DNA from: Dehalococcoidia bacterium
Lineage (GTDB): Bacteria; Chloroflexota; Dehalococcoidia; Lucifugimonadales; UBA1123
Direction: 5' to 3'
Assembly: GCA_965116415.1 (NCBI GenBank)
Contig: OZ220693.1
Coordinates: forward strand, 1,580,753 to 1,644,752
DNA: 64,000 nt
Shown: piece by piece, positions 4,596-55,258 of the stretch
Numbering within the stretch: the stretch's first letter is position 1
How the letters are laid out: each line of letters begins with the position of its first letter
Program-made: the position numbers and the translations under genes
Notes under the pieces: model-generated
What the model was told of the DNA's origin: nothing
Seen by the model: only the letters and a program-made list of their open reading frames with translations
Database searches by the model: none

Positions 4596-4825
4596 ATGGT
4601 AGAAAGTCCGCAGACCCGTGGTAGTCGACACTCAATGACGATCGACGAGATTGGTCCGACAATCGCACATCTCTCAAAGAATCGGCAGACAACCCATTTG
4701 GTCTCGTTAAATCACCTTGCGGGGCGGGCTGGGTGAGAATCAATAATGCCCTTTCAGAGTCACGAGCAAAGTAGAATAAATCGAGTGAACGTGACTGGCA
4801 TGAGTGTCTGGCCGAGTGCAACCTT

Positions 4826-4905
4826 GCAATTGGACGCATATGAACGTTACGATTGGACGGTATATTACTCGACAATTGGACGCATAGCAGCCCGACAATC
4901 GGACG
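4826..4905 (+). repeat. Four direct copies of the same 11-bp motif phased at 23 bp (starts 4826, 4849, 4872, 4895), ending at the ATPase ATG
   Basis: GCAATTGGACG, ACGATTGGACG, ACAATTGGACG, ACAATCGGACG. The flanks of individual units match units of the 3594 cluster but in a different order. Confidence 0.85.
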
Positions 4906-6285
4906 ATGCCAGAACCTACCATCTACCCCAGGTATATCGAGTCGCGACTTGCTGAGGCGCTGGAAGACTCGCCGGTTGTTCTGATTCACGGACCTCGTCA
5001 GTGTGGCAAGACCACTCTCGCACAGACTGTGTGCGCGCCCTCCCAACTGACTTGGGGAGGAGAAGCCATTACTTGGCGAGAAACCCCTTTAAGCTTCCTG
5101 TCAAGCTCCACTCGGGATTACGAGTACGTAAGCTTCGACGATGACAACCTCAGGGCAGGGGCGCAGACTGATCCCATGGGGTTTGTGTATGACCTGCCTG
5201 AGCGCGTCATTCTGGACGAGGTCCAGCGAGTTCCTGAACTGTTCACTGCACTGAAGCTGGAGGTAGACCGCCGCCGGATGCCGGGCCGGTTCGTGCTGAC
5301 CGGATCATCCAACATATTGCTCATCCCGAAACTGGCCGACTCTCTAGCAGGCCGGATGGAAGTCGTACGTCTCCACCCTCTTGGACAGGACGAAATACAG
5401 GGGAGCTTCCCCAGGCCAGAGCCTCTGATTGTCGCTTCTGATCCTCGCTCAGGGTTTATCGATGCTCTGTTCAGTGGGAGATTCCGAACAAGCCACTCAG
5501 AGCGGCTCGGCAAACAACTTTACGAGCGCATTGTGGCTGGCGGGTTTCCTCCAGCCATAGCCCGACAAACGGGTCGCCGACGTGCCTCATGGTACCGAGA
5601 CTACGCCAAGGCCCACGTTCAGCGAGACGTTCAGGATCTAGCACGAATCAAGGGACTGGACGTTCTGCCTGACCTGCTCAATGCTACTGCATCTCAGACG
5701 GCGAGGCTATACAACCTCACTGACCTCTCTTCACCGTTCCAGCAGTCGCGGCAGACTATCGGGGACTACGTGACTCTTCTTGAGAGGGTGTTTCTGATCG
5801 AGCGACTGAGACCGTGGTACAACAACAGACTCAACCGACTGGTGAAGACACCGAAACTGCACATTGGAGACACCGGACTCGGCTGCGCTGTGCTGGGACT
5901 GGACGAACGTGGGCTGGCTGCCAACCGCGAAGTGCTGGGCCAGATGCTTGAGACCTTCGTGTACCAGGAGCTGCGACGGCAGGCTAGCTGGAATCCCAAT
6001 CCCGTCTCGTTCTTCCACTATCGGGACAAGGACCAGATCGAGGTGGACATCGTAGTCGAACGGGGGCCGAATGCTGTTGCCGGCGTGGAGGTGAAAGCTG
6101 GAGCTACGGTGAGACCTTCGGACTTCAGAGGGCTGCGTAGGCTGAAGAAGGTCGTTGGAGATCGATTTACTGCGGGAGTTGTTCTGTACGATGGCGAGAC
6201 CGCAGTGAGCTTCGGTGATGGGCTTTACGCCATTCCCATCCGCCAGATATGGGAGACGCCTTTCGCAACCGGCGTGGAGCGTTAG
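4906..6285 (+). CDS. AAA+ ATPase of the AAA_14/DUF4143 type
   Basis: Walker A GPRQCGKTTL and Walker B VILDEVQRVPELF. The C-terminal region is typical of DUF4143 ATPases (FHYRDKDQIEVDIVVE). Confidence 0.85.
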   Translation: MPEPTIYPRYIESRLAEALEDSPVVLIHGPRQCGKTTLAQTVCAPSQLTWGGEAITWRETPLSFLSSSTRDYEYVSFDDDNLRAGAQTDPMGFVYDLPERVILDEVQRVPELFTALKLEVDRRRMPGRFVLTGSSNILLIPKLADSLAGRMEVVRLHPLGQDEIQGSFPRPEPLIVASDPRSGFIDALFSGRFRTSHSERLGKQLYERIVAGGFPPAIARQTGRRRASWYRDYAKAHVQRDVQDLARIKGLDVLPDLLNATASQTARLYNLTDLSSPFQQSRQTIGDYVTLLERVFLIERLRPWYNNRLNRLVKTPKLHIGDTGLGCAVLGLDERGLAANREVLGQMLETFVYQELRRQASWNPNPVSFFHYRDKDQIEVDIVVERGPNAVAGVEVKAGATVRPSDFRGLRRLKKVVGDRFTAGVVLYDGETAVSFGDGLYAIPIRQIWETPFATGVER

Positions 6286-7172
6286 AGGCCAGTAGCTGTG
6301 TCGCGGGGGTCTTCGAGTTCTTCGGGGGTGATGATCACGGAGCGGGCTTCTATGGCGCCGTTCTCGGCGGCGGGGCCTGCTGCTCTGACCTGCATTCCGA
6401 CCTCAAGGTCGGTGAAGGCTCCCTCGCGTGTTTCGAGGATGACGGAGTCGTCGTCTATGGTTATCGGGAGTGAGCCCTGCTGGGTTTCGAGAGTGAATCC
6501 GGAGTCGGTTGCGCCTGTGACGGCGCCGAAGAGGCCGCCGCGTCCACCGGGAGCTCCCTGCCCGCCGCCAAGCCTTCCCAGTCCGGCGCCTCGGAAGCCT
6601 GTCTGACCCTCGGGAATGATGGTTATGGCCCTCGCGATGGTCTTTCCATCCTGGCGTTCGCTGACTACCATGACCTGGGTGTCGTCGGTCAGGGCCGTTG
6701 GTTCGAGGGCCGACGTGATTCTGATGATGGTGTCCGCTCCGACGTTTACTGAGACTGAGGCGAGGTCTGTCGCAACTGTGATGGTATTCTCTCCGATGCT
6801 CTCGATGGAGCCTGCTACCTGGCTGCCTCCGGGTCCGCCGGGGCCGTCGCCGAACTGTGATCTGATCCTCTGGAACGCCTGGCGGGCCTCCTCTTCGGTC
6901 AGTTGGCCGCTCTGAAGTCGCTGTCTTAGCTCCTGGATCTCTTCCTGGGTCATCGGCGCCTGCTCGCTGTCCGCGCCAGCACCCTGGGTTGTCTGTGCCT
7001 GGGTGACGACTGGCGGTGAGGTGGGCTGTGGCTCAGCCTGGGAGCGCGTGGGGGTTGGGAACTGGGACATATCGGCGACCTGGGCGGTGGTGGGGCTGGC
7101 TTCCTGTTCAGAGGAGCTGCACGCGACGGCTAGGAGGAGAAGGATGGCCAACCCTGTGAAGATGACCAGCAT
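6282..7172 (-). CDS. Secreted lipoprotein, low-complexity, function unknown
   Basis: Start chosen at MLVIFTGLAILLLLAVAC (lipobox LAVAC). It has Pro/Gln/Gly-rich linkers and is the last gene of the HlyD-permease operon on the minus strand. Confidence 0.6.
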   Translation of the reverse strand: MLVIFTGLAILLLLAVACSSSEQEASPTTAQVADMSQFPTPTRSQAEPQPTSPPVVTQAQTTQGAGADSEQAPMTQEEIQELRQRLQSGQLTEEEARQAFQRIRSQFGDGPGGPGGSQVAGSIESIGENTITVATDLASVSVNVGADTIIRITSALEPTALTDDTQVMVVSERQDGKTIARAITIIPEGQTGFRGAGLGRLGGGQGAPGGRGGLFGAVTGATDSGFTLETQQGSLPITIDDDSVILETREGAFTDLEVGMQVRAAGPAAENGAIEARSVIITPEELEDPRDTATGL

Positions 7173-7301
7173 TGTCTTCAATTGATTCTCGCTTTCTGTG
7201 GATTCCCGCTTTCGGAGACCTTTGCATGACATCGTCGTTCCGGCGGAGCCCGGAACCCAGAGGTGTGTGGTAAGTACCCGGTAGCTTGGACGAATGACCT
7301 T

Positions 7302-7340
7302 TTCACCCTCACCCTAGCCCTCTCCCTCAGGGAGAGGGGA
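7302..7340 (+). repeat. REP-like element, family A (TTCACCCTCACCC-N-CCCTCTCCC loop GGGAGAGGG)
   Basis: Stem CCCTCTCCC 7318-7326 pairs with GGGAGAGGG 7330-7338. Same consensus as the other family A copies listed. Confidence 0.85.
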
Positions 7341-7372
7341 TTTTGGAAGGATTTGCACTCGCTGGACTTGCG

Positions 7373-8584
7373 TCATTCGTATCTCAGGGCGTCTATTGGG
7401 TGGAGGCCGGAGGCTCTGGCGGCTGGGTAGATGCCGAAGAACAGGCCGATTCCGGCGGATACGGCCAGTGCGAGGATGGCGAACTCGAGGCTGAAGCTTG
7501 TCGTGAAGGTCTGGTTGCCCAGTGAGCGTCCGTCTACAAGGTTGGTCATTGCGAAGCCGAGGGCCGCTCCGAGGAGGCCGCCTCCGATGCTCAGGACCGT
7601 CGCCTCTGCCACGAACTGGAAGAGGATGTCACTGCGCTTCGCGCCCATCGTCTTGCGGATGCCGATCTCGCGGGTGCGCTCGGTGACAGACACGAGCATG
7701 ATGTTCATTATGCCGATACCGCCCACGAGCAGGGAGATGCCTGCGATCACGCCGAGGAAGACGACGAGCGTGTTCGTGGTCTCTTCAAGGGTCTCAATAG
7801 TGCTCTGCTGGCTGATGACTGTGAAGTCGTCCTCGCCGGTTATGCGGTGGCGCAGTCTGAGCACACCACTGGCCTCCTCGATGCTGCGGTCGACATCGTC
7901 GACGCTCCTGACCTGGACGTTGATGAGGCTTACGGAGACGTCGCCGGCAGAGGTGCGGTCTCCACTGAGCCGGTAGTAGGCTGTGGTGATGGGTATCAAC
8001 ACCTGGGTGTCGAACGTTCCGAATCCGGTTCCGCCCTGGCTAGCGAGCAGCCCTATCACCCTGAACCTACGTCCGTTTACTCGGACGTAGTCGCCTACCG
8101 GGTCACGGTTCTGGAAGAGCTGTTCTGCTACGTTGGCGCCCAGAACGATGACCTCGTCGCGGTTGTCGACGTGGGCAAACCTGATGAACATGCCACTGGC
8201 AAGGTCCAGGCTCCGTGCGCCGAGGTACTCGGGGGTCACGCCGACCACCTGGGCCGTGGTGTTCTCGCGGCCTGCGGCGAGGGTCGCAAAGCTGCGGATT
8301 TCAGGTGCGGCGGCAAGTATGGTCGGGGCGTAGACTGGGTCGACCAGAGCGTTGGCGTCGCCGAGCGTAAGCTGCGCATCGTCCCCCTCAGGCTGTACGA
8401 ACAGGAGGTTGGTGCCCAGACCCTGGATGATCCCCGTGATCTGCTGGGTTGCGCCGCGACCGATCGACATGAGCGTGATCACGGCGGTCACACCTATGAC
8501 GATACCCAGCAGCGCGAGGCCGGCGCGGAGCTTGTTGGCCTCTAGTGAGGCGATGGCTGTCCTTATGGTCTGTAGTGGTGACAT
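7373..8584 (-). CDS. ABC transporter permease, MacB/FtsX family
   Basis: N-terminal TM, a large periplasmic domain and a C-terminal FtsX-like 3-TM block (ERTREIGIRKTMGA motif). Confidence 0.85.
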   Translation of the reverse strand: MSPLQTIRTAIASLEANKLRAGLALLGIVIGVTAVITLMSIGRGATQQITGIIQGLGTNLLFVQPEGDDAQLTLGDANALVDPVYAPTILAAAPEIRSFATLAAGRENTTAQVVGVTPEYLGARSLDLASGMFIRFAHVDNRDEVIVLGANVAEQLFQNRDPVGDYVRVNGRRFRVIGLLASQGGTGFGTFDTQVLIPITTAYYRLSGDRTSAGDVSVSLINVQVRSVDDVDRSIEEASGVLRLRHRITGEDDFTVISQQSTIETLEETTNTLVVFLGVIAGISLLVGGIGIMNIMLVSVTERTREIGIRKTMGAKRSDILFQFVAEATVLSIGGGLLGAALGFAMTNLVDGRSLGNQTFTTSFSLEFAILALAVSAGIGLFFGIYPAARASGLHPIDALRYE

Positions 8585-8605: not shown

Positions 8606-10933
8606 TCAGTTTCTCGGCGGTCCGCCGCCTCGACCGCCGAATCCTCCGACGGCTCGGAACGTCGCTCCGATCCCTCCGAACTGGCTGGTGCTGCTGCCGA
8701 CCACCTCCATGCTGACGAACTCGCCCTCGGCGAGGCCGTCCTCGACCACGACCCAGAAGTCGTCGCTTATGCCGAGCGCAACCTGCCTGTCTACGATGCT
8801 GTCGCCGTTTACCACTCTCACGATCGGGGACTGCACAGAGCCGTAGAGCGCCTGGAGCGGTATCAGCAGCGAGTCGGTCTGTTCGCGTATGACCACCTGG
8901 GCCGTGGCGCTCAGGCCCTCGGGAAGCTGGTTGCCAGGGGCGGACTCCACCAGGATTGTCACCGGGTAGGTCACTACGCCCTGCTGAGAGGCGCCGACGC
9001 TGGCGATGGACGATACGGTGCCGGGCAGTGTCTGCGTTCCGAGTGCCTCCAGGCTGACTGCGGCACGCGCTCCCACCTGCAGGAACAGGACGTCGATCTC
9101 GTCGACCGAGCCGCTGACCTCGACGACGGTCGGGTCGGCTATCTCGATAGCCTGCGTGTTGGCGTTGACCTGCTCGCCGGACTCGATGTCTACAGCAACG
9201 ACAATGCCGTTGAACGGCGCGCGAAGCGTGGCGCTTTCGAGATCGGCGATGGCGGTCTCAAGAGTCGCCTGAGCCGCCACGACCTCGGCTCCTCTGAGTT
9301 CGATATCCAGTTGGTCTACGGTGTTGTACTCAGCCAGCGTTGCCTCGGCGTCTGCCAGTGACTCCATCGCAAGGTTCACCGCAGCCTGCTTCACGAGCAG
9401 GTCGACCGGGTCGGGGTCTTCTAACAGGGATGCGAGGGCTTCCTCGGCATCTGCGAGTCTCGCCTCGGCGAGCTCGATCTCGCGGTCGGCGAGGCCAATG
9501 TCCAGCTCTGCGGGCTGCGTGAGGTCAGCCAGTGCGGTCTGGGCATCGAGCAGGTCCGCTTCGGCGGTCACAATAGCTGCCTGTGCCGACTCGATCTCCA
9601 GCGGGTCCATCTCCTCTTCGATCTCGGCGAGGTAGTCGTCGAGGTCCTGTTGGCGAAGCTCGAGGGTGTCTTCGGCGTTGCTGAGGGCGACGGTTGCGTC
9701 CCAGATCTTCTCTGCCTCCTCAGCCTGCACAGTCTCGAGGTTGTCGGTCAGCTCCGTTACGGCCTCGTAGGCATTGTCGAACTCAGCGGTTACGCAGTAG
9801 CGATTGGGGCCGGCATCTTCGGACTCACAATCGACGACTATCTCTCCGAGGTAGAGCACCACCCAGGACATGACGATAAGCTCGTCCCAAGGAGTTTCTG
9901 GATCGTCGCGCAGTTCGCCCCTGAAGAACTGCTGCTGTATTTCCTCAGTGCGAGGCCCCTCGAAGACGTCCTGCAAGTCGATGCCGTTCGCGGCAAAGAT
10001 CGTTCCGGGTGATTCTCCGGCCATCGGAGTTACGTTCATGCCGAGCCACTTCTCGAAGAGGTCGTTGTAGTCGGCCTGGGCAGTGTCGAGGTCTTCTGCG
10101 ACCGGTTGAGTCCTGTCCTCGGCGTTGCGCTCAGCAGCCTCGAGGTCGAGCCTTTCGGTGACCACGGTCTCCTCGGCTGACTCGATGTCCGCCTGAAGTT
10201 CAGCGATGTGGTCGTCGATCTCCTCGCTGTCGGGGTTGAGAAGAGTGTCGAGGGCGTCTTTCGCGTCCTGCAATGCCACGCGAGCCGCCGTGATGTCGGC
10301 CTGAGCCCTCACGACATCTTCGTTTGTCGGAACGGCGAGGGTGGCCTTGTTCTCAATTGCAGTCTCGAGATCGGCCTGTGCATTCAGGATGTCCAACCTG
10401 GCCTGCGCCAGTTGGTCGGCGGCAGCGATTCCGAGATCGGCAAGCTCCTCCTGGGCATTCTGCAGCGCCAGGCGTGCGTCCGCCACGTCAGACGCGGCCT
10501 GGGCGATCTGTACAGCCGTGTACGGATTCCTGGCGTCTTCTAGGGCGTCGTCAGCGGCGCGCACGTCGACTCGGGCCTGGGCGATGGCCTTCTCAAGGTT
10601 CGCAATGGTCTCGGCGTCCAGGACTGCGAGCGGGTCACCGGCAGAAACGGTGTCGCCTTCGGATACGATGACTTCCGAAACGGTCCCCTGCTGGCCGAAC
10701 GTGAGTGTCTCGCGAGTGGTGTACGTGAGCGTTCCGGTCACGCTGACATCGTTGACGAGATCGCCGCGTGTGACCGGGACGAGCTGTGTCTGCCCCTCTT
10801 CTTCCTCGGCGCTGGAATCCGCCCAGATGCCGTAGCCATAGTAGCCGCCTGCGGCTACCGCGACCAGAATGACCACGCCGACCCATAACTTCCACGACGT
10901 GAGGCTTTCCAAGACTTTCGAGAGTGCGGTCAT
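8606..10933 (-). CDS. HlyD/MFP-family periplasmic adaptor with greatly extended coiled coil
   Basis: N-terminal TM, barrel-sandwich motifs (GDTVSAGDPLAVLD) and a long Ala/Glu/Asp/Leu-rich heptad region. It is 775 aa, against the 350-450 aa usual for this family. Confidence 0.8.
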   Translation of the reverse strand: MTALSKVLESLTSWKLWVGVVILVAVAAGGYYGYGIWADSSAEEEEGQTQLVPVTRGDLVNDVSVTGTLTYTTRETLTFGQQGTVSEVIVSEGDTVSAGDPLAVLDAETIANLEKAIAQARVDVRAADDALEDARNPYTAVQIAQAASDVADARLALQNAQEELADLGIAAADQLAQARLDILNAQADLETAIENKATLAVPTNEDVVRAQADITAARVALQDAKDALDTLLNPDSEEIDDHIAELQADIESAEETVVTERLDLEAAERNAEDRTQPVAEDLDTAQADYNDLFEKWLGMNVTPMAGESPGTIFAANGIDLQDVFEGPRTEEIQQQFFRGELRDDPETPWDELIVMSWVVLYLGEIVVDCESEDAGPNRYCVTAEFDNAYEAVTELTDNLETVQAEEAEKIWDATVALSNAEDTLELRQQDLDDYLAEIEEEMDPLEIESAQAAIVTAEADLLDAQTALADLTQPAELDIGLADREIELAEARLADAEEALASLLEDPDPVDLLVKQAAVNLAMESLADAEATLAEYNTVDQLDIELRGAEVVAAQATLETAIADLESATLRAPFNGIVVAVDIESGEQVNANTQAIEIADPTVVEVSGSVDEIDVLFLQVGARAAVSLEALGTQTLPGTVSSIASVGASQQGVVTYPVTILVESAPGNQLPEGLSATAQVVIREQTDSLLIPLQALYGSVQSPIVRVVNGDSIVDRQVALGISDDFWVVVEDGLAEGEFVSMEVVGSSTSQFGGIGATFRAVGGFGGRGGGPPRN

Positions 10934-11038
10934 TCCGATTCCTTGTGTCCAGTTAGCTCTTGATGCACAAATAAGGTAACGGTCTGTCTATGGAAAGGTT
11001 AGGTGTGGTTTATCCATGACTGCTGGGGGGGCGGCATA

Positions 11039-37149: not shown

Positions 37150-37362
37150 CTAGGCGCAATCCTCAGTCGTGCTTTGTTTACTGAGCATGGACTCCACCTG
37201 CTTCGCTTCAGATTCGCTCACGATTCGGAAGATGGTGTACTGGGGAGCATCTTTGGCCCGGCCCCGTATCGCCTTGCGACCATTTTTCAGGGTTACCACA
37301 CCGGGTTCCACAATCTCGCACATCCTGCGCAGCGGTAAGCAGTAAGCAGTTAGTCCTTCCAA
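37150..37362 (-). CDS. Small hypothetical protein (start uncertain, possibly 37323)
   Basis: Open frame immediately downstream of 37350..37922 in a lower-GC block. No recognisable motif. Confidence 0.3.
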   Translation of the reverse strand: MEGLTAYCLPLRRMCEIVEPGVVTLKNGRKAIRGRAKDAPQYTIFRIVSESEAKQVESMLSKQSTTEDCA

Positions 37363-37922
37363 GGGATACCTCCGTTGATCTGTTGGTTTTGGCCTTCATC
37401 CTCTAACAGGCCGTGAGAACCATTTCCATTTTGCAGGGCATGGTTTTCCCCTCCGCGCCGGGCTGTAGTTAGAGCAACGATGTCATCGTCCAGGTACTCT
37501 TTAATCAACTCAACAGCCTGGCTAATGGCCTGGTCCAGGTTGTTTCGGGCGGTTTCTGGTTCGGCATGGTTGACCTGGAACCCCAGCCACTGCTCCCACC
37601 GTTCCCTGTCATCCCGTATTATCAATTGGACATCTTTCCAGTCCTGGGCCAGCTTCAGTAACCGATGCAGCACCCAGTCCCACTGACTGGGACTGTTCAC
37701 ATAGCACAGGACATAAGCCGTTCCACCGGTGGTCTCCCACCAGTCTGGCAACTCAGGGTGACCTTCACAGGAGGAGAGGGTTTCTACCAGGTCGGTCTGG
37801 TTCAATGTCCACACCAGCTCCCTGATCCCTGGTTCCAACTGCTCGTAGTCCATGAACCAGGGGTGCATCGCCTGGGCGCCAGGGAAAGTCTTAAGGAGAA
37901 CCGCTCGTTTGAACCACCACAT
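37350..37922 (-). CDS. Hypothetical protein
   Basis: 190-aa ORF with Trp-rich, non-repetitive composition (SSCEGHPELPDWWETTGGTAYVLCYV). Lower GC than the flanks. Confidence 0.5.
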   Translation of the reverse strand: MWWFKRAVLLKTFPGAQAMHPWFMDYEQLEPGIRELVWTLNQTDLVETLSSCEGHPELPDWWETTGGTAYVLCYVNSPSQWDWVLHRLLKLAQDWKDVQLIIRDDRERWEQWLGFQVNHAEPETARNNLDQAISQAVELIKEYLDDDIVALTTARRGGENHALQNGNGSHGLLEDEGQNQQINGGIPWKD

Positions 37923-38313: not shown

Positions 38314-39038
38314 ATGAGAATCACCCTCGCCGATGCGTGCGTGTTTGCGCTCTTGATAGGGTTGCTGAACGCCTGCGACGGTGGCCAGCAGACGACATCT
38401 ACAGCGTCAACCCCACTCACCGCCACTCAGCTTTTGCCCGATGGGTCCGTCGTCGTACGGGGCGAGGTGTGGGCCGATAACTGGTTCGCCTTCTATCTCG
38501 GCGAGCGCCTGATTGTCGAGGACTCGACGCCGATTACTACAGAGCGGTCGTTCAATGCGGAGACGTTCGTCTTTGAGGGCGAGTACCCTATGCAGATGAA
38601 TTTTGTCGCCAAGGACTTCAAGGAGAACGACACAGGCCTGGAGTACATAGGCCGTCGCAATCAGCAGATGGGCGATGGAGGTCTCATTGCGCAGTTCACG
38701 GACACTGCAACGGGTGGCACAATCGCGGTCACAGACTCCAACTGGAGATGCCTGGTCATCCACGCGGCGCCACTCAATCGCTCTGGTGCAGACGAGTCCA
38801 ATCCAGAGGCCGGCGTCAGCCCTTGCCAATTCCGTGCGATGGATGAGCCCGAAGGCTGGCGTATGCCGGACTACGACGACAGCGAATGGGGTCAGCAGTG
38901 GAGTACAGTGAAAGCGATGTGCGCCCGAAGGACGGTTACGACCGAATTGACTGGAGCAGCGAGGCGCAACTAATCTGGGCCGCCGACCTCGAGAGGGACA
39001 ACACCCTGCTATGCCGCCTCTCAGTGGAGCGACCCTGA
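38314..39038 (+). pseudogene. Lipoprotein of unknown function with probable frameshift near 38890-38900
   Basis: Lipobox LLNAC. After DDSEWG the annotated frame turns Arg/Thr-rich. The +1 frame reads VEYSESDVRPKDGYDRIDWSSEAQLIWAADLERDNTLLCRLSVERP up to the TGA at 39036-39038. Confidence 0.45.
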
Positions 39039-39166: not shown

Positions 39167-39274
39167 TAAAGGTCTTAGTCAGTGACTTTGCTGAACGCGG
39201 TTGCCAGCCTGGGGGGGACTTGCTGAAGTTGGGCGACGGGCGCCGTGGGTTCGTGCGTGACTCTTCGTGAACCT

Positions 39275-40570
39275 CTAAGTTGCTTCTGCCATTTCCACCA
39301 CAGCGTCCTCCACTCTCAGTACGGCAAGCTGGACCTGCCTAAGGTCATGGACAACGGCGGCAATCGAGTCAATATCAGTGTTCCCTATAGCCGTATCAAG
39401 TTCATTGAACTTCGCACCAAAATCTCGGAGGGCTAGAACAATCTCGTGGAGTCTCACTCCTAGCGAGTATCTCCTATTTAGGTGAAATTCCCTGCTTAGT
39501 GTCGATAAGGCTCTCATCTTCTCATCGATTTGCTCAAACCTCAGCTTGAGAGCCTCACGAATTGAACGTAGATCTGCGAGAGGAATATTGGGGCCGATCG
39601 GCTCAATTATCTGAAGTGTCTCGTTGACGAACTGCTTGATTCCTATCGACCCGAGCTTGGAGACAAACTCCCGCCGCAAGGGCCCTACCACGTCGTCGGG
39701 AAGGCTGGTGATCCTGCGAATCTGGAATAATCTGTTGGCGTCAACTTCTCCGAACAGTTCAAATTCGATGCCAATCAGCTGCTTCGCCGGAAAACGCATC
39801 ACATCCCGCTTGGTTTCACCTGGCTGAAGAGTGCCTATTTCTGTCCTGTATCGCCCCGCAGCTTCTATGACGACGGAGTTGAACCACACGTCTGGCCAGT
39901 CCGCACGATCCGGTGCGGTGTTATGAACCGTAAGCGTGACCTCTGCGTTCCCATCTGTACCCTCATCCGGCATCCTCACTGTCTTCTCCAAGACCAAGCA
40001 GGACTGTAATATCCGCCACAGATCGGATGTCGGAGTAGGAGCCTCCTGAACCTCTACACCGCGCTCGGGATGGTCGAACTCGTCCATGGGGTCTTCTTCC
40101 TCCACACTACTGGAATCTCCTTCCAACTCATTACTCATCGTCTCGATTTCCAAGGCCTCATCGCAGCTCAGAGCCGTGAGGATACGTCTCATTTGCTCTG
40201 CTGCCCTTCTCGCACGTGCCAAAGAAATGTTGTCTAGGTGTGCCCAGTCATTCCGTATGGCTGTCAACCGCCGGAGTTCCTCAGATGTCCTTACCGTGTC
40301 CCTAAAAGCATCTGAAAACACGTTGGAGTTTCGGCCAATGATGCGCATGAAGTGAGGAGCGTCCAAAAGGAGGTGCCGATCACGAGCTGGGTCTCTTTCG
40401 AAGTGTGGCTTCAGAGCTTCCAGTTGGGCTTCCGTTAAGGATCTCTCCACTCCATTCTGCCACCAGTCATCCCCATGTTCGCCGACCAAGCGTTCGTAAA
40501 TCGCTCTCCTGACTCCTGTTATGTAGAGAACATGGCATCGCGTGAAGAACATATAGACATCCAAGTTCAA
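39275..40570 (-). CDS. Swt1-like HEPN domain protein with an uncharacterised C-terminal two-thirds
   Basis: N-terminal GDDWWQNGV...LTAIRNDWAHL (RNxxAH fits Rx4H). It continues with an acidic linker, a beta-rich middle and a helical C-terminus. Lower GC. Confidence 0.6.
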   Translation of the reverse strand: MNLDVYMFFTRCHVLYITGVRRAIYERLVGEHGDDWWQNGVERSLTEAQLEALKPHFERDPARDRHLLLDAPHFMRIIGRNSNVFSDAFRDTVRTSEELRRLTAIRNDWAHLDNISLARARRAAEQMRRILTALSCDEALEIETMSNELEGDSSSVEEEDPMDEFDHPERGVEVQEAPTPTSDLWRILQSCLVLEKTVRMPDEGTDGNAEVTLTVHNTAPDRADWPDVWFNSVVIEAAGRYRTEIGTLQPGETKRDVMRFPAKQLIGIEFELFGEVDANRLFQIRRITSLPDDVVGPLRREFVSKLGSIGIKQFVNETLQIIEPIGPNIPLADLRSIREALKLRFEQIDEKMRALSTLSREFHLNRRYSLGVRLHEIVLALRDFGAKFNELDTAIGNTDIDSIAAVVHDLRQVQLAVLRVEDAVVEMAEAT

Positions 40571-40773
40571 GGAGACACCTCTTGCTAGCTGGTCACACTA
40601 ATTTGGTGCTGGGCCATAGTGTATACCTACTTCAGGATCGCTCAACCGTGGTTGCCGGCTCTCCAACAGCTTAAGGGATGTAACGGCTAAGAAGAACTCG
40701 GCCAAATGCCACAGTTCCCCATCTCTATGTCACTGGGACTTGCGCATGACGGCCTGAAATATTGGCTGTCAGT

Positions 40774-41643
40774 TCATCCGTCGCTCTCCTGTGTGGCTCG
40801 CCACAGGTAGCTCGCAAACGAAGCGCAGACACCAAGCATAAACACTGCCTCGTCTCGTCCCGAGGGTGAAGCCGAGTGGTCCAACAAGGCGTGGCGGATT
40901 CCCTCCTCATCCGATGTGTATCCGTAGAGTTTACTGAAAGCATCCTTTAGCGCCGGATGAATGTGCTTTCTTTCTTCGAGCGACTTCAAAGCTGGTGCTA
41001 ATGTACTGGCTGATTCTGGAGCCAGCGTACGCGCTACGGATTCAACAGAGTGAATGCTCTCTCTAATTGACCCTGGCCAGTCGCCTTGATTTATCAGCTC
41101 TGTCGCTTTCCGGAGATGTGTTCTCGCTCCATCAAGGCCCGTCTCACTTAACGTGTGCATAGCGTCCGTGATTGCTTCACCTTCCTGCCAAGTGGCCATG
41201 GGGAAAATGGTAGGAGGCCCATTCGTGTCCACGCAGTAAGCCAACTGACAGTATTCAAATAGGGCTTTTACTTCGACGGTGAATTCAGATGGGCATTTTG
41301 GATGACGCATGATGATCTGTAGTACATCGAATACCTTGTTGAATTCTAAGTCCTCTAGTATTTGATACCTGTAGATGCCAAGGAATTCATCTATTGTGCC
41401 TCTGAATTCCTCTAGTGGTATCTCTAGAAACTCCCGATGCAGTTCCGCTGCTATTGCCCTCCAATTAACTCCTAAGTGGCCACCTCCAGAGGATCTACGT
41501 AAATATATATACAGCAAATCCCATAGCCTGTGACGAGCATCAGAACTAAGTTCTTCAAGTGCTAGCGGACCAGGTAGACCCTCGTAGCCTTGGGCTTGCG
41601 AGAATGTGAGGTTTCTGGGATCAAGTCTCTCGTTATCTTGCAC
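40774..41643 (-). CDS. AbiJ-like protein (AbiJ N-terminal domain 4 plus HEPN-like C-terminus)
   Basis: N-terminal LTFSQAQGYEGLPGPLALEELSSDARHRLWDLLY. C-terminal SIRESIHSVESVAR...LYGYTSDEEGIRHAL. Confidence 0.55.
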   Translation of the reverse strand: MQDNERLDPRNLTFSQAQGYEGLPGPLALEELSSDARHRLWDLLYIYLRRSSGGGHLGVNWRAIAAELHREFLEIPLEEFRGTIDEFLGIYRYQILEDLEFNKVFDVLQIIMRHPKCPSEFTVEVKALFEYCQLAYCVDTNGPPTIFPMATWQEGEAITDAMHTLSETGLDGARTHLRKATELINQGDWPGSIRESIHSVESVARTLAPESASTLAPALKSLEERKHIHPALKDAFSKLYGYTSDEEGIRHALLDHSASPSGRDEAVFMLGVCASFASYLWRATQESDG

Positions 41644-41763
41644 GTATATTCTCCGGATCGATTCTCATTGCATTAGGCCTTCACGGCTCGGGTCGAGACT
41701 CCCGCCAGTTCTGCAACAAGCCTTGTCTGTAGCAGAACCCAGATGCGCACCGCAGTGGTGGTC

Positions 41764-43017
41764 TCAGCCGACCACCTTCCTGAACGCCGTCGCCAGCCTC
41801 GGCCCCACCTCTCTGAGCTGCTCGACGGTTGCGCTGCTGAAGGCTAGGCGGAGGTACCTGTCGCGGGCCTTCTCGGAGTCGTGGAAGAACGACGAACCGG
41901 ACGCAAGCATGAGTCCCACTTCGGCGGCCGCGGCTCTCACCTCGGACGCGGGCGCGCCGATGCACTCCAGCCACAGGAAGAACCCTCCCTCGGGACGGGT
42001 GAACCTGACGTATTGGCCGCAGTGCTCTTCGATGGAGTCGCACAGCGTCCGGCACTTGAGCGCGTACAGCTCGCGCATCTCCTCAACGTGGGGCTCGAGG
42101 TGGCCGGCGTCCACGTAGCGCGCCATCGCCATGAGCAGCAGGGGGCTGCCACCCATGTCCTGCCTGACCTTGGGCAGCGCCCTTATGAACTCGTGCCTCG
42201 CCTGCACCCAGCCGATTCGCAGGCCGGTGGCGGCGACCTTGCTGAAGGTGCCGATGCGCATTACGCCGTAGCCTTCGGACAGTGCGTACATCGAGGGAGG
42301 AGGCGAGTCGTCGAAGTGGAGCTCGCTGTAGGTGCCGTCCTCGACGACCAGGACGCGGTGGCGGGCGCACAGCTCGAGCAACGCCCTGCGGCGGGCCTCG
42401 GACATCGTGACGCCTGTCGGATTGTGGTAGTCGGGGATCGTGTAGAGCATCTTGACCGTCTTGCCGGCGGCCTCAGCCTCGGCGATGGCAGCCGCAACGG
42501 CCTCCAGCGAGATGCCGTCTTCGTCGACGGGGACCTCGGCGATCTCGGCCTGGCAGGCCCGGATCGTCTGGACGAAGCCGCTGAAGCTCGGGCCCTCTGA
42601 TATGACCACGTCGCCCGCGCGGACGAACGTCCTGGCGATGTTGTCCATCGCCGCGGAGCCGCCGTTGTGAACGATGAAGTTGCCAGCGTCGAGGTCGAGG
42701 CCGTCGATGCGGCTCTGGCGGTCGGCCAGCGCCTCTCGCAGGCCATCGAATCCCATCCAGCCGCCGTAGACCATGGCGTCGTCCGCTTCTTCGTCGAGGA
42801 CGGCGTTCAGCGCGTTCCTGAGATCCTCGACAGGGATAGTGGGCGCGTCGGGAATGCCGCCTCCCAGCGGGATGAGGTCGGGGTGCTCAGACGGCAGCGT
42901 CCATGTCCACTCTCCTTCAGCGTCGTCTCCAACACCCGCCATGAGCGCCGCCTCTGACGCGAGCTCGCCGAGTCGCACATCCTGCCAGGCTGCGCGCGAT
43001 ATTTCCCTCTGGTCCAT
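41764..43017 (-). CDS. PLP-dependent aminotransferase, class I/II
   Basis: Motifs YHNPTG and GTFSKVAATGLRIGW (PLP lysine context), with LRLAFS near the C-terminus. Confidence 0.85.
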   Translation of the reverse strand: MDQREISRAAWQDVRLGELASEAALMAGVGDDAEGEWTWTLPSEHPDLIPLGGGIPDAPTIPVEDLRNALNAVLDEEADDAMVYGGWMGFDGLREALADRQSRIDGLDLDAGNFIVHNGGSAAMDNIARTFVRAGDVVISEGPSFSGFVQTIRACQAEIAEVPVDEDGISLEAVAAAIAEAEAAGKTVKMLYTIPDYHNPTGVTMSEARRRALLELCARHRVLVVEDGTYSELHFDDSPPPSMYALSEGYGVMRIGTFSKVAATGLRIGWVQARHEFIRALPKVRQDMGGSPLLLMAMARYVDAGHLEPHVEEMRELYALKCRTLCDSIEEHCGQYVRFTRPEGGFFLWLECIGAPASEVRAAAAEVGLMLASGSSFFHDSEKARDRYLRLAFSSATVEQLREVGPRLATAFRKVVG

Positions 43018-50696: not shown

Positions 50697-50850
50697 CTAG
50701 CTAGGGTACTTGCCGAACATGATGAAGCCGTTGCTGTCGGGGATGTTGCATCCGGCGAGGGCGGTTTCGGCCTTGACTGTCACCTGCCGTGCGCCCGCTG
50801 TCCCCCGGAGCTCTCCACATCTTCCGTGCCATGCTGGCGACGGGCTGGTG
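50697..50850 (-). pseudogene. 3'-terminal fragment of a thiolase-like paralog
   Basis: Encodes ...LRGTAGARQVTVKAETALAGCNIPDSNGFIMFGKYPS, matching the C-terminus of 53963..55258. It carries the same internal deletion junction as the 51351 fragment. Confidence 0.8.
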
Positions 50851-50875
50851 ACGTACTTATTATCGATAAGCGCGT

Positions 50876-50916
50876 TTAGCGATAACAAGACTCCTCGCTA
50901 TTCTCGTTATCGCTAA
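50876..50916. other. 11-bp perfect inverted repeat TTAGCGATAAC ... GTTATCGCTAA (19-nt spacer), plus palindrome TTATCGATAA at 50859-50868
   Basis: Read directly. It lies at the junction between the thiolase fragment and the 3' side of the YgiT-type gene. Confidence 0.5.
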
Positions 50917-50988
50917 CAGCGAGCGACTTGTCATCTTCGCCCAGTCACGGGCGTTCACCGCATGAGCAGATGGTTCTCTACCGGATGC

Positions 50989-51222
50989 TCACGACACAAA
51001 CTCGTACACCTGCATGGAGACTGACCTCGTTGGCTCAGCTTCACCACGAAGCATCATCCGGACCTTTTCGGCTGTCTCACGGCTGAATGACTGCTCTCCA
51101 CACCGCGAACACACCGTGCACGGTACGCCCTCCACCAAATAGTGACGACCGTTGACATTGAAGACCTCCTCAGCAAGCTCTTCACGGCTGTCGTCAGCGC
51201 CGCAGACCGCACAGACGAACAT
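50989..51222 (-). CDS. YgiT-type zinc-finger protein (MqsA N-terminal-domain-like), orphan
   Basis: The CAVCG...CTVCSRCGE four-Cys pattern and 77-aa size are typical of the family. No toxin partner is seen. Confidence 0.7.
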   Translation of the reverse strand: MFVCAVCGADDSREELAEEVFNVNGRHYLVEGVPCTVCSRCGEQSFSRETAEKVRMMLRGEAEPTRSVSMQVYEFVS

Positions 51223-51350
51223 GTCTACCTCCTGACAGAATGGTCAATCCATTCATCCAGACTCGAGGATAGTGCCAAAATACCGCCATTCACAGACGCA
51301 GTAATGGGCAACCTCTCATAGCTCAACAGAGTTCCACACCACCCCACCCC

Positions 51351-51800
51351 CTAACTCGGGTACTTGCCGAACATGATGAAGCCGTTGCCGTCGGGGGTGT
51401 TGCAGCGTGCTAGAGCGGTCTCGGCCTTCACCGTTACCTGGCGGGCGCTTCTGTGCCGCGGAGCCCTCCCACATCTTCCGCGCCATGCTGGCGACCGCCT
51501 CCTGGTGCTCGGCCAGGGCACCGTGGAACTCCTGCCCCTGCTGTTCTACTGTGCGTGGCTGAGGATGTAGACTGGCTTCTGTCTCAGGTCCCTGGCACGC
51601 TCAGCGGTGGTGAAGATGAAGGCAGCACAGGTGTTGACCGGTCTGTCGCAGTCGTAGATTACCAGCGGCTCCTCGATCACGAGCCCATTCAGGTAGTCCT
51701 CGAGCGCAAGCTAGTAGGGCTCGTGCAAAGCGTAGAAGCCCCATGGCGTCATCAGGCCGTTTCGGCGCAGGTTAATGCAGAGAGGCACCCAGTCCGCGTT
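51351..51800 (-). pseudogene. Decayed fragment of a thiolase-like paralog with an internal deletion
   Basis: Collinear with 53963 to about 54650, except that about 0.2 kb (about 54082-54300 in the intact copy) is missing. In-frame stops are present. Confidence 0.8.
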
Positions 51801-52167
51801 TAGAAAACCCTGCTGATGGATCACTCAGAACATGGGAGTGACGAACCCCCTGGGATCTGATATGGGGAGAAACCCCGCGACCGGTTTCGAGGTCCCGCCG
51901 CTGGTTCGTTATGTGCATATTATGCAAAGTTGAACCTAGGAAGGTCATCGTATGCTAGCGCAAGCCATCCATTACTGGTCGATTGAAGCTGGAGGCAACT
52001 CACAGGCCGCCGCAGTACGTAGTTGACTTATGGTAGCATTAGGCCTCTGTTAAAGTTCCAGTCTGCTCCTCGCTACCACTTGGCCGTTTTCGCAGCTAGA
52101 CCGCCTCTGAAATCCTCCAAATGCCGAAAGATTGCCGACACTCATTTGAAGACATGGGGTTCTGGAC

Positions 52168-52518
52168 ATGCGCGACACCCTAAATCTGTACTTTTGGTTC
52201 AATGGAAGAATCATCCGATGGACCTATTGGTGGCGCGCCATTCCAGTCCTTCTCATTCTACTCGTAGCCTACGGGATGATGGTGGAGGGCATAGCCCCTC
52301 TGGGAGCTGCCGCGATCCTGCTGGCCAGCGGATGGGTCTACTGTGCCCTAACCATCAAGCGACTTCACGACAGGGGAAAGTCTGCTTGGTGGACTCTGAC
52401 CCTGTTCATTCTCTTAATTATCGGGGTGGGCTGGCTGAGTTGGGAATGTTCGAAGAAGGGATCCTACAGCAGAAACCGCTACGGCCTGTCGCCGGAGTAC
52501 CTACGGGATAATGAGTGA
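52168..52518 (+). CDS. DUF805-family inner membrane protein
   Basis: GRIIRWTYWW, TIKRLHDRGKSAWW and NRYG motifs. Confidence 0.8.
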   Translation: MRDTLNLYFWFNGRIIRWTYWWRAIPVLLILLVAYGMMVEGIAPLGAAAILLASGWVYCALTIKRLHDRGKSAWWTLTLFILLIIGVGWLSWECSKKGSYSRNRYGLSPEYLRDNE

Positions 52519-52746
52519 TTGAAAAGGGCCTTCGGATCGAGTCGCAACAAGACAGCCGCCATCGCCTTCATAGTACTCTGCTTGGTCGTGATCGCCAGTG
52601 TGCTCCTTCTCTTCGGCGACTCGCCTCAGATGTATGACAATAGCCTGACCTACCTTGTGGGGAAGGGAGATAGCGGGGGAACCGAATTATCGGACATGAT
52701 ATGGAAGAGCTACACGTATACCTTGACGAAAAGTATGCTGATCTAG
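52519..52746 (+). CDS. Small hypothetical membrane protein (weak)
   Basis: TTG start abutting the DUF805 stop, with one hydrophobic segment. Its end overlaps the next gene. Confidence 0.3.
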   Translation: MKRAFGSSRNKTAAIAFIVLCLVVIASVLLLFGDSPQMYDNSLTYLVGKGDSGGTELSDMIWKSYTYTLTKSMLI

Positions 52747-53465
52747 GCACCATCCATGACCTGCAAGTGACATCATTGACTGGAGTATTACTGGTATCCA
52801 GCCAGTTGGTTCCTTTCAGGCATAAGTACTTCGACTTGTTGAACGACCTTTTCCCCTCTCCACCAAAACGGCTGCCGAATTTCATTGAGGTTCATGCGAG
52901 TAAACTGTTTCCCGATGAACCAAATGACGAGGTTCGCTACGAGTTCATGCAGAATTTAGTCTCGATAATAAATGAAATGCAATTACCTGTTGTGAGAGTA
53001 GGCTATCGCCGAAATAGTGACGCGCAGGAGCTGTATGAATCTGCGGGATTGTGGAGAAACTATCAAGAGTTTGAGAAAAAAGCTCTGTTGAGCCTCTGCT
53101 TCTCAGGGTTCCAGAGTACACTTGATTCGTCTGAAGCACTCGTTTTCTATCACATGGAGACGGACAATTCAGATCTGCAATACCATACATTCCAGAGAAG
53201 TACCACCAACACTCAGTGGGTTGGTAGATTCTTGTTTCCAGAGAGCATGTCCGTTGACCCAGACAAAACTGGAGACGTGTCGTTTTACGCGAAAGGTTCT
53301 CCTTACGGGGTGTTGCCGGATTGTCTCGGATACCTGCTTCATCTGAGATGGAGAAATGATCAAGGTGATTATCTCAAGCCCTACGGATTGCGAATGGCAG
53401 AAATCTTCAATGAAATCAATGCGGAGCTAATTCAAGAGCAGGTTGTGGACATTCAGTCATCCTAA
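52701..53465 (+). CDS. Hypothetical protein, possibly DUF3800-like
   Basis: The N-terminal VYLDEKY resembles the DUF3800 YxDESG start, and LPDCLGYLLH near the C-terminus resembles its second motif. GC is clearly low. Confidence 0.4.
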   Translation: MEELHVYLDEKYADLGTIHDLQVTSLTGVLLVSSQLVPFRHKYFDLLNDLFPSPPKRLPNFIEVHASKLFPDEPNDEVRYEFMQNLVSIINEMQLPVVRVGYRRNSDAQELYESAGLWRNYQEFEKKALLSLCFSGFQSTLDSSEALVFYHMETDNSDLQYHTFQRSTTNTQWVGRFLFPESMSVDPDKTGDVSFYAKGSPYGVLPDCLGYLLHLRWRNDQGDYLKPYGLRMAEIFNEINAELIQEQVVDIQSS

Positions 53466-53906
53466 TGCATCTTGCCAAAGAGATACGTAAGAGAGGCGTG
53501 TGCTCCCAATGGATGCACCAGCGTGTGAACCCCTACAGAAAGCAAGGCACCTTCAGAAAACAGAGGGAGCACACTTATCATAGAGACGTTACCCATGCAT
53601 CATTACAGACGTTATAGTTGCAGTTCTCTTAGTTCGCTGATTTCTCCCTTCAACCCGTGGATCTCGGATCGCTTGGCTAAGAAACATGATGCCCCAGTTC
53701 ACACTACAGAATGAGTCTCTGAAGATTATCTGGTCACTCATTTAGTTCTCTAGCGTTCCGAACTCCTTCTCCCACCTGAACCCTGAATTAGTGCCTCCAC
53801 AAACCCAGCCGCGGGCAGCACCTCACAACCCACCCAAGAGCAACCAGCCCCACACCTAGTACCGTTTCGAGGTGGTTTTGCCATTTTGGCTTGACTGGCG
53901 AACCGT

Positions 53907-53930
53907 CCTTCGACAAGCTCAGGACGAACG
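53907..53930 (+). repeat. REP-like element, family B
   Basis: CCTTCGACAAGCTCAGGACGAACG, identical to 21148-21171. Confidence 0.85.
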
Positions 53931-53962
53931 ATCCTAGTCACCAGAATTAAGTGGAACCGGGA

Positions 53963-55258
53963 CTAGCTCGGGTGCTTGCTGAACATGATGAAGCCGTTGC
54001 TGTCGGGGGTGTTGCAGCCGGCGAGCGCGGTCTCGGCCTTCACTGTCACCTGGCGTGCTCCGGCTGTTCCCCGGAGCTGCTGGATGCTGTCGGCGTAGAG
54101 GACGGCGCGGTTGCGGCCTGTTCCGTTGTTGCCTCCGCTGGAGAGGAACGGGTGCGGACCCTCGACCCTGATGTCTTCGGCGTAGAAGTCATGTGCCTCG
54201 CCCCATCCGACGCCGTGCCACTGGAAGCCCTCCAGGAACTGCTGCGTGAACGTGAGGTAGCCGTCGTACGGGTTGAAGATATCGACGTCGCCAGGACCCA
54301 ACCCTGAGCCCTCCCACATCTTCCGCGCCATGCTGGCGACCGCCTCCTGGTGCTCGTCCAGGGTCGCCATGGAGCTCCTGCCCCTGCCGTTCTGCTGCGC
54401 GTGGTTGAGGACGTAGACCGGCTTCTGTCTCAGGTCCCTGGCGCGCTCTGCGGTGGTGAAGATGAACGCCGCGCAGGTGTTGACCGGCCTGTCGCAGTCG
54501 TAGATGATCAGCGGCTCCTCGATCACGCGACCGTTCAGGTAGTCCTCGATCGTGAGCTGATAGGGCTCGTGCAACGCGTAGAATCCCCAGGGAGTCTTCA
54601 GGCCGTTCCTGCGCAGGTTTATGCAGAGAGGCGCCAGCCCGTCGTGGGTCTTGCCGTACTTCTGGCAGTACTGGAGGAAGACCACCAGGTTGTTGAACAT
54701 CGCGCCGCTCTGGTATCCCCACGGAAGCGTGAAGGCGCTGTTTCCATGGGCCTCTTCGCTGACGTTCTGTGGGTTGTTGTGCCCGTACCGACCTGAGAGG
54801 TTGACCATCGGGTACCACACCAGGGCGGTCTCGCACAGACCATCGCCGACCGCCTGGGCGGCCAGGCCCATCATCGGGCCGATATAGGGCGCGTCGGACT
54901 TGAGGTACTTGACGTTCTTGAGACCAAGCTCCCGCTGTATCCACTCCGCCGACGTGTAGGTGAGGCCGTCTTCGGTGTCGAAGGGAGGATCGAAGTAGGG
55001 ACGAGGCGCCCAGGTCTGCTCGGCACGGGTCTCCGGGCTGGTGATTAGCCCGTCGATGTCGTCCAGCGACAGGCCCGCGTCGGCAATTGCGCTGAGACAA
55101 GCCTCCTTGGTCAGCCCGCCGCAGCTCCTGTCCAGGGACACGCCGTCCCAGCGACGGTCCATGTGGGACTGTCCCCAGCCCACCACGGCGACCTTGCCCC
55201 GGTGCTCCCAGACTCCCATGCCTTCCTGGTCTCTCATCCAACCTGTGTTGCTTGGCAT
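53963..55258 (-). CDS. Thiolase-like protein (SCP-x / DUF35-associated type)
   Basis: 431 aa with a thiolase-fold pattern. It is co-oriented with and adjacent to a DUF35 OB-fold gene, the usual partner. Confidence 0.8.
   Translation of the reverse strand: MPSNTGWMRDQEGMGVWEHRGKVAVVGWGQSHMDRRWDGVSLDRSCGGLTKEACLSAIADAGLSLDDIDGLITSPETRAEQTWAPRPYFDPPFDTEDGLTYTSAEWIQRELGLKNVKYLKSDAPYIGPMMGLAAQAVGDGLCETALVWYPMVNLSGRYGHNNPQNVSEEAHGNSAFTLPWGYQSGAMFNNLVVFLQYCQKYGKTHDGLAPLCINLRRNGLKTPWGFYALHEPYQLTIEDYLNGRVIEEPLIIYDCDRPVNTCAAFIFTTAERARDLRQKPVYVLNHAQQNGRGRSSMATLDEHQEAVASMARKMWEGSGLGPGDVDIFNPYDGYLTFTQQFLEGFQWHGVGWGEAHDFYAEDIRVEGPHPFLSSGGNNGTGRNRAVLYADSIQQLRGTAGARQVTVKAETALAGCNTPDSNGFIMFSKHPS

Follow-up and report, generated by a model that had tools for sequence, protein, structure and literature searches.

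Two adjacent single-gene candidates for defence, a Swt1-type HEPN protein on an undescribed module and a PDC-S32 family member, in a cassette inserted at an aminotransferase gene end in Dehalococcoidia

The DNA analysed here, which we call the window, is a stretch of 64,000 nt from a Dehalococcoidia bacterium (assembly GCA_965116415.1, contig OZ220693.1, positions 1,580,753-1,644,752 of the forward strand), and all coordinates below are those of the window unless a locus is named. On its minus strand lie two adjacent genes, encoding proteins that we call protein 1 and protein 2, which make up a cassette of ~2.5 kb (39247-41763). In the order of the coding strand, an aminotransferase gene (41764-43017) is followed by the gene for protein 2, a 203-bp spacer and the gene for protein 1. 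We consider it probable that the cassette carries two independent single-gene candidates for abortive-infection or RNA-targeting defence, and that they do not form a two-component system. The features of the locus are the following:

39172-39246, minus strand: right-hand copy of the duplication, in which the aminotransferase 3' end is displaced and decayed; marks the cassette end (translation, tblastn and alignment)
39275-40570, minus strand: protein 1 gene, 431 aa, TTG start
39284-39697, minus strand: C-terminal long-helix bundle of protein 1, residues 292-429 (AlphaFold model)
39704-39997, minus strand: beta-sandwich of protein 1, residues 192-289 (seven strands in the AlphaFold model)
40025-40123, minus strand: acidic disordered linker of protein 1, residues 150-182 (predicted local distance difference test, pLDDT, <50; poorly conserved in the 22-sequence alignment)
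40127-40570, minus strand: HEPN domain of protein 1, residues 1-148 (PF18731)
40571-40678, minus strand: conserved leader of protein 1, ~108 nt, with GAGGTG (alignment with L015 and L017)
40774-41643, minus strand: protein 2 gene, 289 aa, GTG start
40780-41133, minus strand: C-terminal helical domain of protein 2, residues 171-288 (AlphaFold pLDDT 78.8, predicted template modelling score, pTM, 0.70)
41158-41607, minus strand: AbiJ_NTD4-type N-terminal domain of protein 2, residues 13-162 (PF18863)
41760-41841, minus strand: genuine aminotransferase 3' end, left copy of the ~80-nt direct duplication (alignment)
41764-43017, minus strand: class I/II aminotransferase, a housekeeping gene and the target of the cassette at its 3' end (PF00155, 1.5e-37)

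An earlier note on this DNA, made from the sequence alone, had described two co-oriented open reading frames (ORFs) about 200 bp apart in a lower-GC island, with a housekeeping aminotransferase on one side and gene remnants on the other, and had quoted a motif from each protein. All of this was borne out: the motifs, RNDWAH (40238-40255) in protein 1 and YGYTSDEEGIRH (40891-40926) in protein 2, are present with checked translations, and the remnants are specifically the decayed copy of the aminotransferase 3' end. The GC content of the cassette is 51.5% vs a window mean of 59.4% (standard deviation 2.8%, in 2.5-kb segments), a value as low as that being reached by 0.2% of such segments. The GC content, and that at third codon positions (GC3), was 52.2% and 0.58 for the protein 1 gene, 49.7% and 0.48 for the protein 2 gene, and 66.9% and 0.87 for the aminotransferase gene. 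Beyond the cassette, the GC content is somewhat reduced down to ~37150.

The boundaries of the cassette show how it reached this place. Directly past the stop codon of protein 1, the remnant holds the last ~25 aminotransferase codons including the stop, and it translates as TAPVAQLQQVPPRLATAFSKVTD and stop, to be compared with the genuine aminotransferase end, VEQLREVGPRLATAFRKVVG and stop. By tblastn it matches the aminotransferase with 67% over 21 aa, and it matches the functional aminotransferase 3' end of a related contig (L017) with 80.6% over 67 nt. The displaced copy is also found in L015, L017 and L018, where it can be aligned over ~80 nt with genuine 3' ends, stop codon included; the genuine end in the window (41760-41841) matches these displaced copies downstream of protein 1 with 81.7% over 82 nt. 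A direct duplication of the gene end, as is a feature of site-specific islets, is present at both boundaries. Since the ~80-nt duplicate brackets the cassette, we conclude that the cassette was horizontally acquired and arrived by insertion at the 3' end of the aminotransferase gene. The scar is the expected outcome of an element that inserts at the 3' end of a gene and supplies a replacement end, and the cassette may be the leftover of a larger element. No tRNA gene that could have been the integration target is present in the window.

On neither side of the block that runs from the aminotransferase to the remnant is there any synteny between the window and L017. Within the block, the synonymous divergence (dS) is similar across the three genes (0.55, 0.60 and 0.42), so the insertion is older than the split of the two genomes. 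The ratio of nonsynonymous to synonymous divergence (dN/dS) against L017 was 0.16 for protein 1, 0.29 for protein 2 and 0.17 for the aminotransferase (84% protein identity), and both cassette genes have been maintained by purifying selection since the insertion. Another aspect to mention is that, in L015, the protein 2 orthologue is separated from the aminotransferase by two extra small genes at 6767-7792, one of 217 aa and the other a GMC_oxred_C fragment of 96 aa, both of which are missing in the window and in L017. Together with the insertion sequence (IS) of L015 described below, they suggest that the gene-end site keeps accumulating insertions.

To establish if the two genes form a pair, both proteins were run against all the loci gathered, 24 with relatives of protein 1 and 42 with relatives of protein 2. 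The two proteins were found together only in L015-L018, contigs that share the arrangement of the window; protein 2 was missing from the other 20 of 20 protein 1 loci, and protein 1 from the other 38 of 38 protein 2 loci. Furthermore, none of the 16 protein 2 metagenome loci with at least 1.5 kb of downstream sequence contained protein 1. The same upstream aminotransferase (83-84% protein identity) was present in L015, L017 and L018, and L016 begins with a 50-nt match to the window remnant and stops within the gene for protein 1, the full aminotransferase gene being absent because this contig has only 3.8 kb. The proteins of L015-L017 share 73-79% (protein 2) and 87-88% (protein 1) identity with those of the window. 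At 63-65% identity, the relatives of protein 2 are already single genes, one after dnaK and one among small unknown genes. Neighbour clustering over 18 protein 1 loci showed no shared partner. Because co-occurrence is limited to L015-L018 and to one shared arrangement, the two genes are neighbours in one lineage and not a recurrent system. The defence pair proposed in the earlier note, which was to be given up if the proteins did not co-occur elsewhere, is not sustained. Its view that the composite architecture is uncharacterised stands for protein 1, whose module has no match in Pfam, PADLOC, NCBIfam or the PDB, and not for protein 2, which is already in PADLOC as a candidate.

Protein 1 is, as judged from profile and motif, a Swt1-clade HEPN protein on a previously undescribed module. 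The HEPN_Swt1 profile (PF18731) matched residues 18-135 with positions 8-115 of 115 of the model, at 38.1 bits (2.1e-09) and over the Pfam gathering cutoff of 27.5 bits. Within RNDWAH, which has the Rx4H form, residues R106, N107, W109, A110 and H111 do not vary among 22 relatives with identities down to 41%, and 25 of 26 relatives carry a precomputed PF18731 label. The Swt1-type HEPN of the earlier note was correct, and the ~290 aa that follow it are uncharacterised as it said, since they had no match in Pfam, PADLOC, NCBIfam or the PDB. NCBIfam gave no match to protein 1, and in PADLOC its HEPN part weakly matches PDC-M34B only.

In the AlphaFold model of protein 1 (mean pLDDT 78.8), residues 1-148 are all-helical and are followed by the linker, the beta-sandwich and the helical bundle. 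In the beta-sandwich, N217, T218, A219 and P220 (NTAP) and also P226 are invariant, and HNTAP is found in at least 90% of the relatives; in the helical bundle a QLAVLRVED motif is conserved. The 22-member alignment shows strong conservation along the C-terminal 250 residues. Searches of the PDB with Foldseek returned for the beta-sandwich only generic folds (Ig-like, C2, transglutaminase-barrel) at E >0.003, and for the bundle only generic four-helix-bundle matches. No significant match of protein 1 was obtained in a viral structure library, and PDB sequence-profile searches gave nothing meaningful for either the protein 1 or the protein 2 family.

The protein 1 family is small, with 26 clusters at 90% identity among 5.8 billion proteins, and 12 of 12 genome loci belong to metagenome-assembled genomes (MAGs) of Dehalococcoidia. 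The family is confined mainly to this class and is absent from PADLOC. A scan of JGI metagenomes gave 244 pattern matches, of which 0 were confirmed as relatives, and the phage database contained none. A word-indexed search with the HEPN domain alone found three truncated fragments only and is uninformative on HEPN-DUF499 relatives. Decay is frequent in the family: the orthologue of L015 carries a DDE_Tnp_1 IS insertion (10214-10977); apparent frameshifts are seen in L018 (~9404-9416) and L006 (~9083-9088), both low-coverage long-read assemblies in which sequencing error is possible; L010 and L012 contain isolated C-terminal or N-terminal fragments, and clusters P0147-P0149 are truncated.

With a profile of the C-terminal module (residues 183-431), we searched 1.84 billion representatives exhaustively with HMMER and obtained 201 proteins at E <=0.001, 58 of them at E <=1e-30. 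The module appears fused to HEPN also in the distant P0265 and P0229 (PF18731 at 3e-15 and 3e-12), alone in proteins of ~260-350 aa (P0238, P0249, P0246), after an HTH_3 and a NYN RNase domain in P0287, and after a helix-turn-helix (HTH) only in P0299 and P0318. In P0294 the module is followed by a C-terminal segment with an RNEAVH motif; a HEPN domain in this tail was considered, the motif being its sole hint and Pfam giving no recognition, so that it is tentative. No PADLOC model matched these proteins via the module. A subgroup formed by P0246, P0269, P0294 and P0265 has a conserved acidic-aromatic tail (S/DDEEV.Y.YRGR-like) that is missing from protein 1. The mixed RNase heads on one module would fit a domain for sensing or regulation whose effectors can be exchanged. 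Possibly, and we propose it tentatively, the protein 1 family is a new single-protein HEPN defence in which the module (HNTAP...WP.V.F / QLAVLRVED) acts as a portable sensor or regulator, coupled to Swt1-HEPN, to HTH-NYN and perhaps to a C-terminal Rx4H; in Hma systems without a HEPN, the family might in addition provide the missing arm in trans.

This last idea comes from the closest non-syntenic relatives of protein 1. P0005 and P0007 (77-78% identity, loci L013 and L014) lie 23 bp past HmaC, in a block that PADLOC recognised as HmaA (1.5e-13, for the available C-terminal part), HmaB (4.9e-116) and HmaC (6.2e-73), that is, a helicase-methylase-ATPase (Hma) system. The HmaC of L014 has no Pfam-detectable HEPN, and a comparison of protein 1 with it by hhalign gave a probability of 0.3, without similarity. 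A free-standing homologue of protein 1 could supply HEPN in trans to the Hma of L014, or else it could belong to the numerous independent defence genes that are found clustered around Hma. As regards the literature, the bacterial Swt1-like clade (Ava_2192) has HEPN fused to a DUF499 ATPase, in operons similar to restriction-modification systems with a SNF2 helicase (PMC3710099, Table 1), and a 2026 survey reports 1,370 taxa in which DUF499 is fused to HEPN, in 'Type-1 BREX-related' systems (PMC12839542). Protein 1 has in common with them PF18731 and an active-type Rx4H, in addition to the position of its relatives right after HmaC. It differs in being free-standing, without an ATPase domain, and in its beta-sandwich and helical bundle, which are unrelated to HmaC; moreover, the characteristic Hma operon (DUF1156 methylase and SNF2 helicase) was met only at L013 and L014.

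From these data, protein 1 could be regarded as a detached accessory HEPN arm of Hma (the DUF499 'BREX-related' systems), orphan in the window and there inactive or differently used. The HEPN-less HmaC next to its relatives and the published HEPN-DUF499 fusions speak in favour of this explanation, which we nevertheless regard as unlikely: Hma is found at 2 of the 24 protein 1 loci only, no Hma homologue exists in the 64-kb window, where protein 1 is under purifying selection, and protein 1 and the HmaC of L014 are dissimilar. Furthermore, 62.7% of Hma systems have embedded genes, and these embedded or adjacent genes are typically independent defence systems (bioRxiv 10.1101/2024.01.29.577857).

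The contexts of the remaining relatives of protein 1 are diverse. Some adjoin IS elements or an OLD/AAA_15-type ATPase, and others lie within 6 kb of strong matches to DpdJ, viperin, the UG29 reverse transcriptase and an EcoO109I-type restriction enzyme. In five divergent loci, the immediate neighbours had essentially zero PADLOC matches. The most divergent relative, in L011 (29% identity), is immediately preceded by a small gene pair containing HTH_3 (3833-4540). The same pair is present in L015, L017 and L018 (~3970-4770 / 5470-6140), ~3.5 kb upstream of the cassette and on the opposite strand, and it is missing near the cassette of the window.

Protein 2 adds a member to a candidate family that PADLOC already lists. 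Two PADLOC models of PDC-S32 matched it, PDLC04997 at 9.8e-54 (residues 12-285 vs model positions 7-282 of 285) and PDLC04996 at 1.5e-44, and this search with a defence-system finder covered protein 2 at full length. The family is large, with >1,600 relatives; no mention of PDC-S32 was found in the papers searched. The N-terminal part matched AbiJ_NTD4 (PF18863) at 8.8e-07 and 29.9 bits, which is under the cutoff of 34, with nearly the whole model covered; 19 of 34 relatives match it at E <=0.01 (best 8e-11), and the RefSeq label of plasmid-borne relatives is 'AbiJ-NTD4 domain-containing protein'. The PADLOC AbiJ models did not match protein 2. The invariant residues of the family are W189, S196, E201-S202, A204-R205, Y240, Y242, S244, E246, G248, R250-H251 and E265-A266. 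The R250-H251 dyad (40891-40896) is in the loop preceding the last helix, the usual place of the HEPN motif. The window protein also has an RHALLDH stretch, in which H256 is present in 1 of 34 sequences; for this reason we consider it accidental.

In relation to known systems, protein 2 matches both models of PDC-S32, a single-gene 'guilt-by-embedding' candidate (Payne et al., bioRxiv 10.1101/2024.01.29.577857), from end to end. Its relatives are likewise single genes and no structural difference was found, except that the copy in the window adjoins another HEPN gene, which is not a trait of the family. Protein 2 also shares with the AbiJ/Abi_C RNases (SadR, PMC13590631; lactococcal AbiJ, PMC3710099) a single-gene layout with a variable N-terminal domain and a C-terminal helical effector. 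SadR of Staphylococcus aureus is a Mg-dependent nuclease of single-stranded RNA whose RNEYGDAH motif is essential for RNase activity and defence, and AbiJ-NTD4 is found on 3 of 2,815 Abi_C proteins (PMC13590631). In contrast to these RNases, protein 2 has no Abi_C, and the adjacent invariant R250-H251 takes the place of a conserved Rx4-6H. For protein 1, HEC-08 could be taken as a working precedent by analogy. This validated single-protein defence has a DUF3644 HEPN followed by C-terminal zinc-ribbon-like domains, is associated with Hma and requires the HEPN histidine for defence (bioRxiv 10.1101/2024.01.29.577857). As in protein 1, an N-terminal HEPN precedes an uncharacterised C-terminal module; however, the HEPN family is DUF3644 instead of Swt1, the C-terminal module is unrelated, and protein 1 had no match to the HEC models of PADLOC.

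For the cassette we infer ribonuclease activity, a trigger and a defence phenotype in the following manner. Protein 1 would be a Swt1-clade HEPN ribonuclease that has to dimerise, like other HEPN RNases, to complete its predicted catalytic Rx4H site (R106...H111). The enzyme would stay inactive until a sign of infection is detected by its beta-sandwich and helical-bundle module, and would then cleave RNA and bring the cell to arrest. By analogy, then, protein 1 presumably dimerises, is controlled by its C-terminal module and degrades RNA when triggered. In protein 2, AbiJ_NTD4 would be the presumed sensor and the C-terminal four-helix HEPN-like domain, with its atypical invariants (E201, R205, R250-H251), the presumed effector; we propose these roles with less confidence than the mechanism of protein 1. 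In favour of a defence role we count the PDC-S32 match of protein 2, the HEPN_Swt1 match of protein 1 with its invariant Rx4H, the Hma and other defence genes near relatives of protein 1, and the recurrence of its module after other domains.

Several observations weigh against this interpretation. Regarding the insertion, no integrase or recombinase is present in the cassette, which contains two genes only, neither of them with a recombinase domain. Many relatives of protein 1 are located amid housekeeping genes of transport and metabolism and not in defence islands, and in P0269 the module is behind a lipoprotein-like signal peptide, a poor fit to an intracellular sensor. Whole-chain Foldseek of protein 1, which is dominated by the other domains, gave zero HEPN structures in the top 50, so the HEPN call relies on the profile and the motif. 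With respect to protein 2, the PDC systems have been described as 145 untested candidates (bioRxiv 10.1101/2024.01.29.577857), and the HEPN character of its C-terminal domain is doubtful. The best specific PDB fold matches of this domain were all HEPN (sacsin 3o10, TT1696 1ufb, TM0613 1o3u, AF_0298 2hsb and HEPN-MNT 8xeh); their target TM-scores lay between 0.52 and 0.63 and their probabilities between 0.54 and 0.95, at E values of 0.6-3.3, none of them reaching 0.001. Searched alone, the domain had zero Pfam matches at E up to 10, Abi_C (PF14355) included; across the 34 relatives examined, Abi_C was absent from all and no Rx4-6H is positionally conserved. Given these non-significant fold matches and the lack of a conserved Rx4-6H or Abi_C, 'HEPN-type' for protein 2 is a possibility at the level of the fold only. 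From what the earlier note said of this protein, the AbiJ-type N-terminal domain was probably right, with membership in PDC-S32 to be added, and the HEPN type was not established. Lastly, the pair has been retained in its lineage with similar dS, and a lineage-specific cooperation is possible.

Such a cooperation is the basis of a further explanation, according to which the two genes are a lineage-specific two-gene system, with protein 2, for example, sensing and licensing the RNase of protein 1, or with a restraint similar to that of toxin-antitoxin (TA) systems. The genes are indeed adjacent and co-oriented inside one insertion scar, and the pair is kept in the window and in the four related contigs with comparable dS. 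In addition to the absence of co-occurrence in the 20 other protein 1 loci and the 38 other protein 2 loci, and to the definition of PDC-S32 as a single-gene candidate, the expression signals and the history of the genes argue against this system. In L015 the IS splits the protein 1 orthologue and protein 2 is intact. The intergenic gap ranges from 203 to ~340 bp in the window and the four related contigs: the 108 nt before protein 1 are conserved, including a Shine-Dalgarno-like GAGGTG located seven nucleotides before the TTG start and kept in related contigs, and the remainder of the spacer (40679-40773) is not conserved and differs by >130 nt of indels. This combination of a conserved leader and a variable spacer points to separate expression signals for protein 1. 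The search for families of Rfam across 36.5-44 kb gave zero matches, the conserved leader folded no better than shuffles (z = 0.23), and promoter and terminator scans remained at background level. No HEPN-cognate antitoxin such as MNT was detected in the Pfam, PADLOC and NCBIfam searches. We therefore give a two-gene system a low probability and maintain that of two independent single-gene candidates.

It is also improbable that neither gene is defensive and that the two, carried by a small mobile fragment, have roles in RNA processing, in stress response or in selfish addiction: the defence role of either family is predicted from sequence, which is a point against our own interpretation, many relatives are isolated among housekeeping genes and the protein 1 family decays frequently, but HEPN_Swt1 retains an intact catalytic motif, the patchy, mobile distribution and the foreign composition are typical of defence genes, and frequent loss is also consistent with the known turnover of such genes.

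Other regions of the window also have low GC content. The moderately low-GC stretch that separates the cassette from the high-GC genes below 37150 includes two ORFs. ORF190 (37350-37922, minus strand) had no family match except a chance-level one to PADLOC Hhe (5.5e-4), and it is a real conserved gene, since it belongs to a 37-member cluster at 90% identity that extends across many Dehalococcoidia MAGs. ORF219 (38314-38973, plus strand), the only member of its cluster, shows a lipobox-like sequence (LLNAC) at its N-terminus. A second low-GC patch (2542-6285, ~52.5-53.5% GC) contains an ORF of 187 aa (2542-3105), DUF6932-type by eye, with a 4-nt overlap with an XRE/HTH-like ORF (3102-3530); an ORF of 250 aa (3843-4595) with a 'YRNKMFH' Rx4H-like motif; and an ORF of 459 aa (4906-6285) with a Walker A 'GPRQCGKTT', by eye an AAA ATPase. 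The ORF at 3843-4595 was considered as a third HEPN protein, which was unsupported by the PDB or by hhalign against the protein 1 family. A DUF6932 and HTH_3 pair is also found ~430 nt downstream of the protein 2 relative in L062. The patch is possibly another small islet of TA or defence genes. In a third patch (50700-54800), which includes an ORF of 254 aa (52701-53465), the GC content reaches the minimum of the window, 51.3%, near 51500-54000.

If our interpretation is right, a false lead is removed, because no new paired system is present and PDC-S32 was already catalogued. The ~80-nt scar would then show by example how a defence cassette of 2.5 kb that has no integrase can persist at the 3' end of a gene. 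The location of protein 1 relatives right behind a HEPN-less HmaC offers a natural experiment on a separately supplied HEPN arm of Hma (DUF499), and the module of protein 1, although without a counterpart in Pfam, PADLOC or the PDB, is found again joined to other RNase heads. The protein 1 family would be a compact and testable candidate HEPN effector from the poorly studied and largely uncultured Dehalococcoidia.

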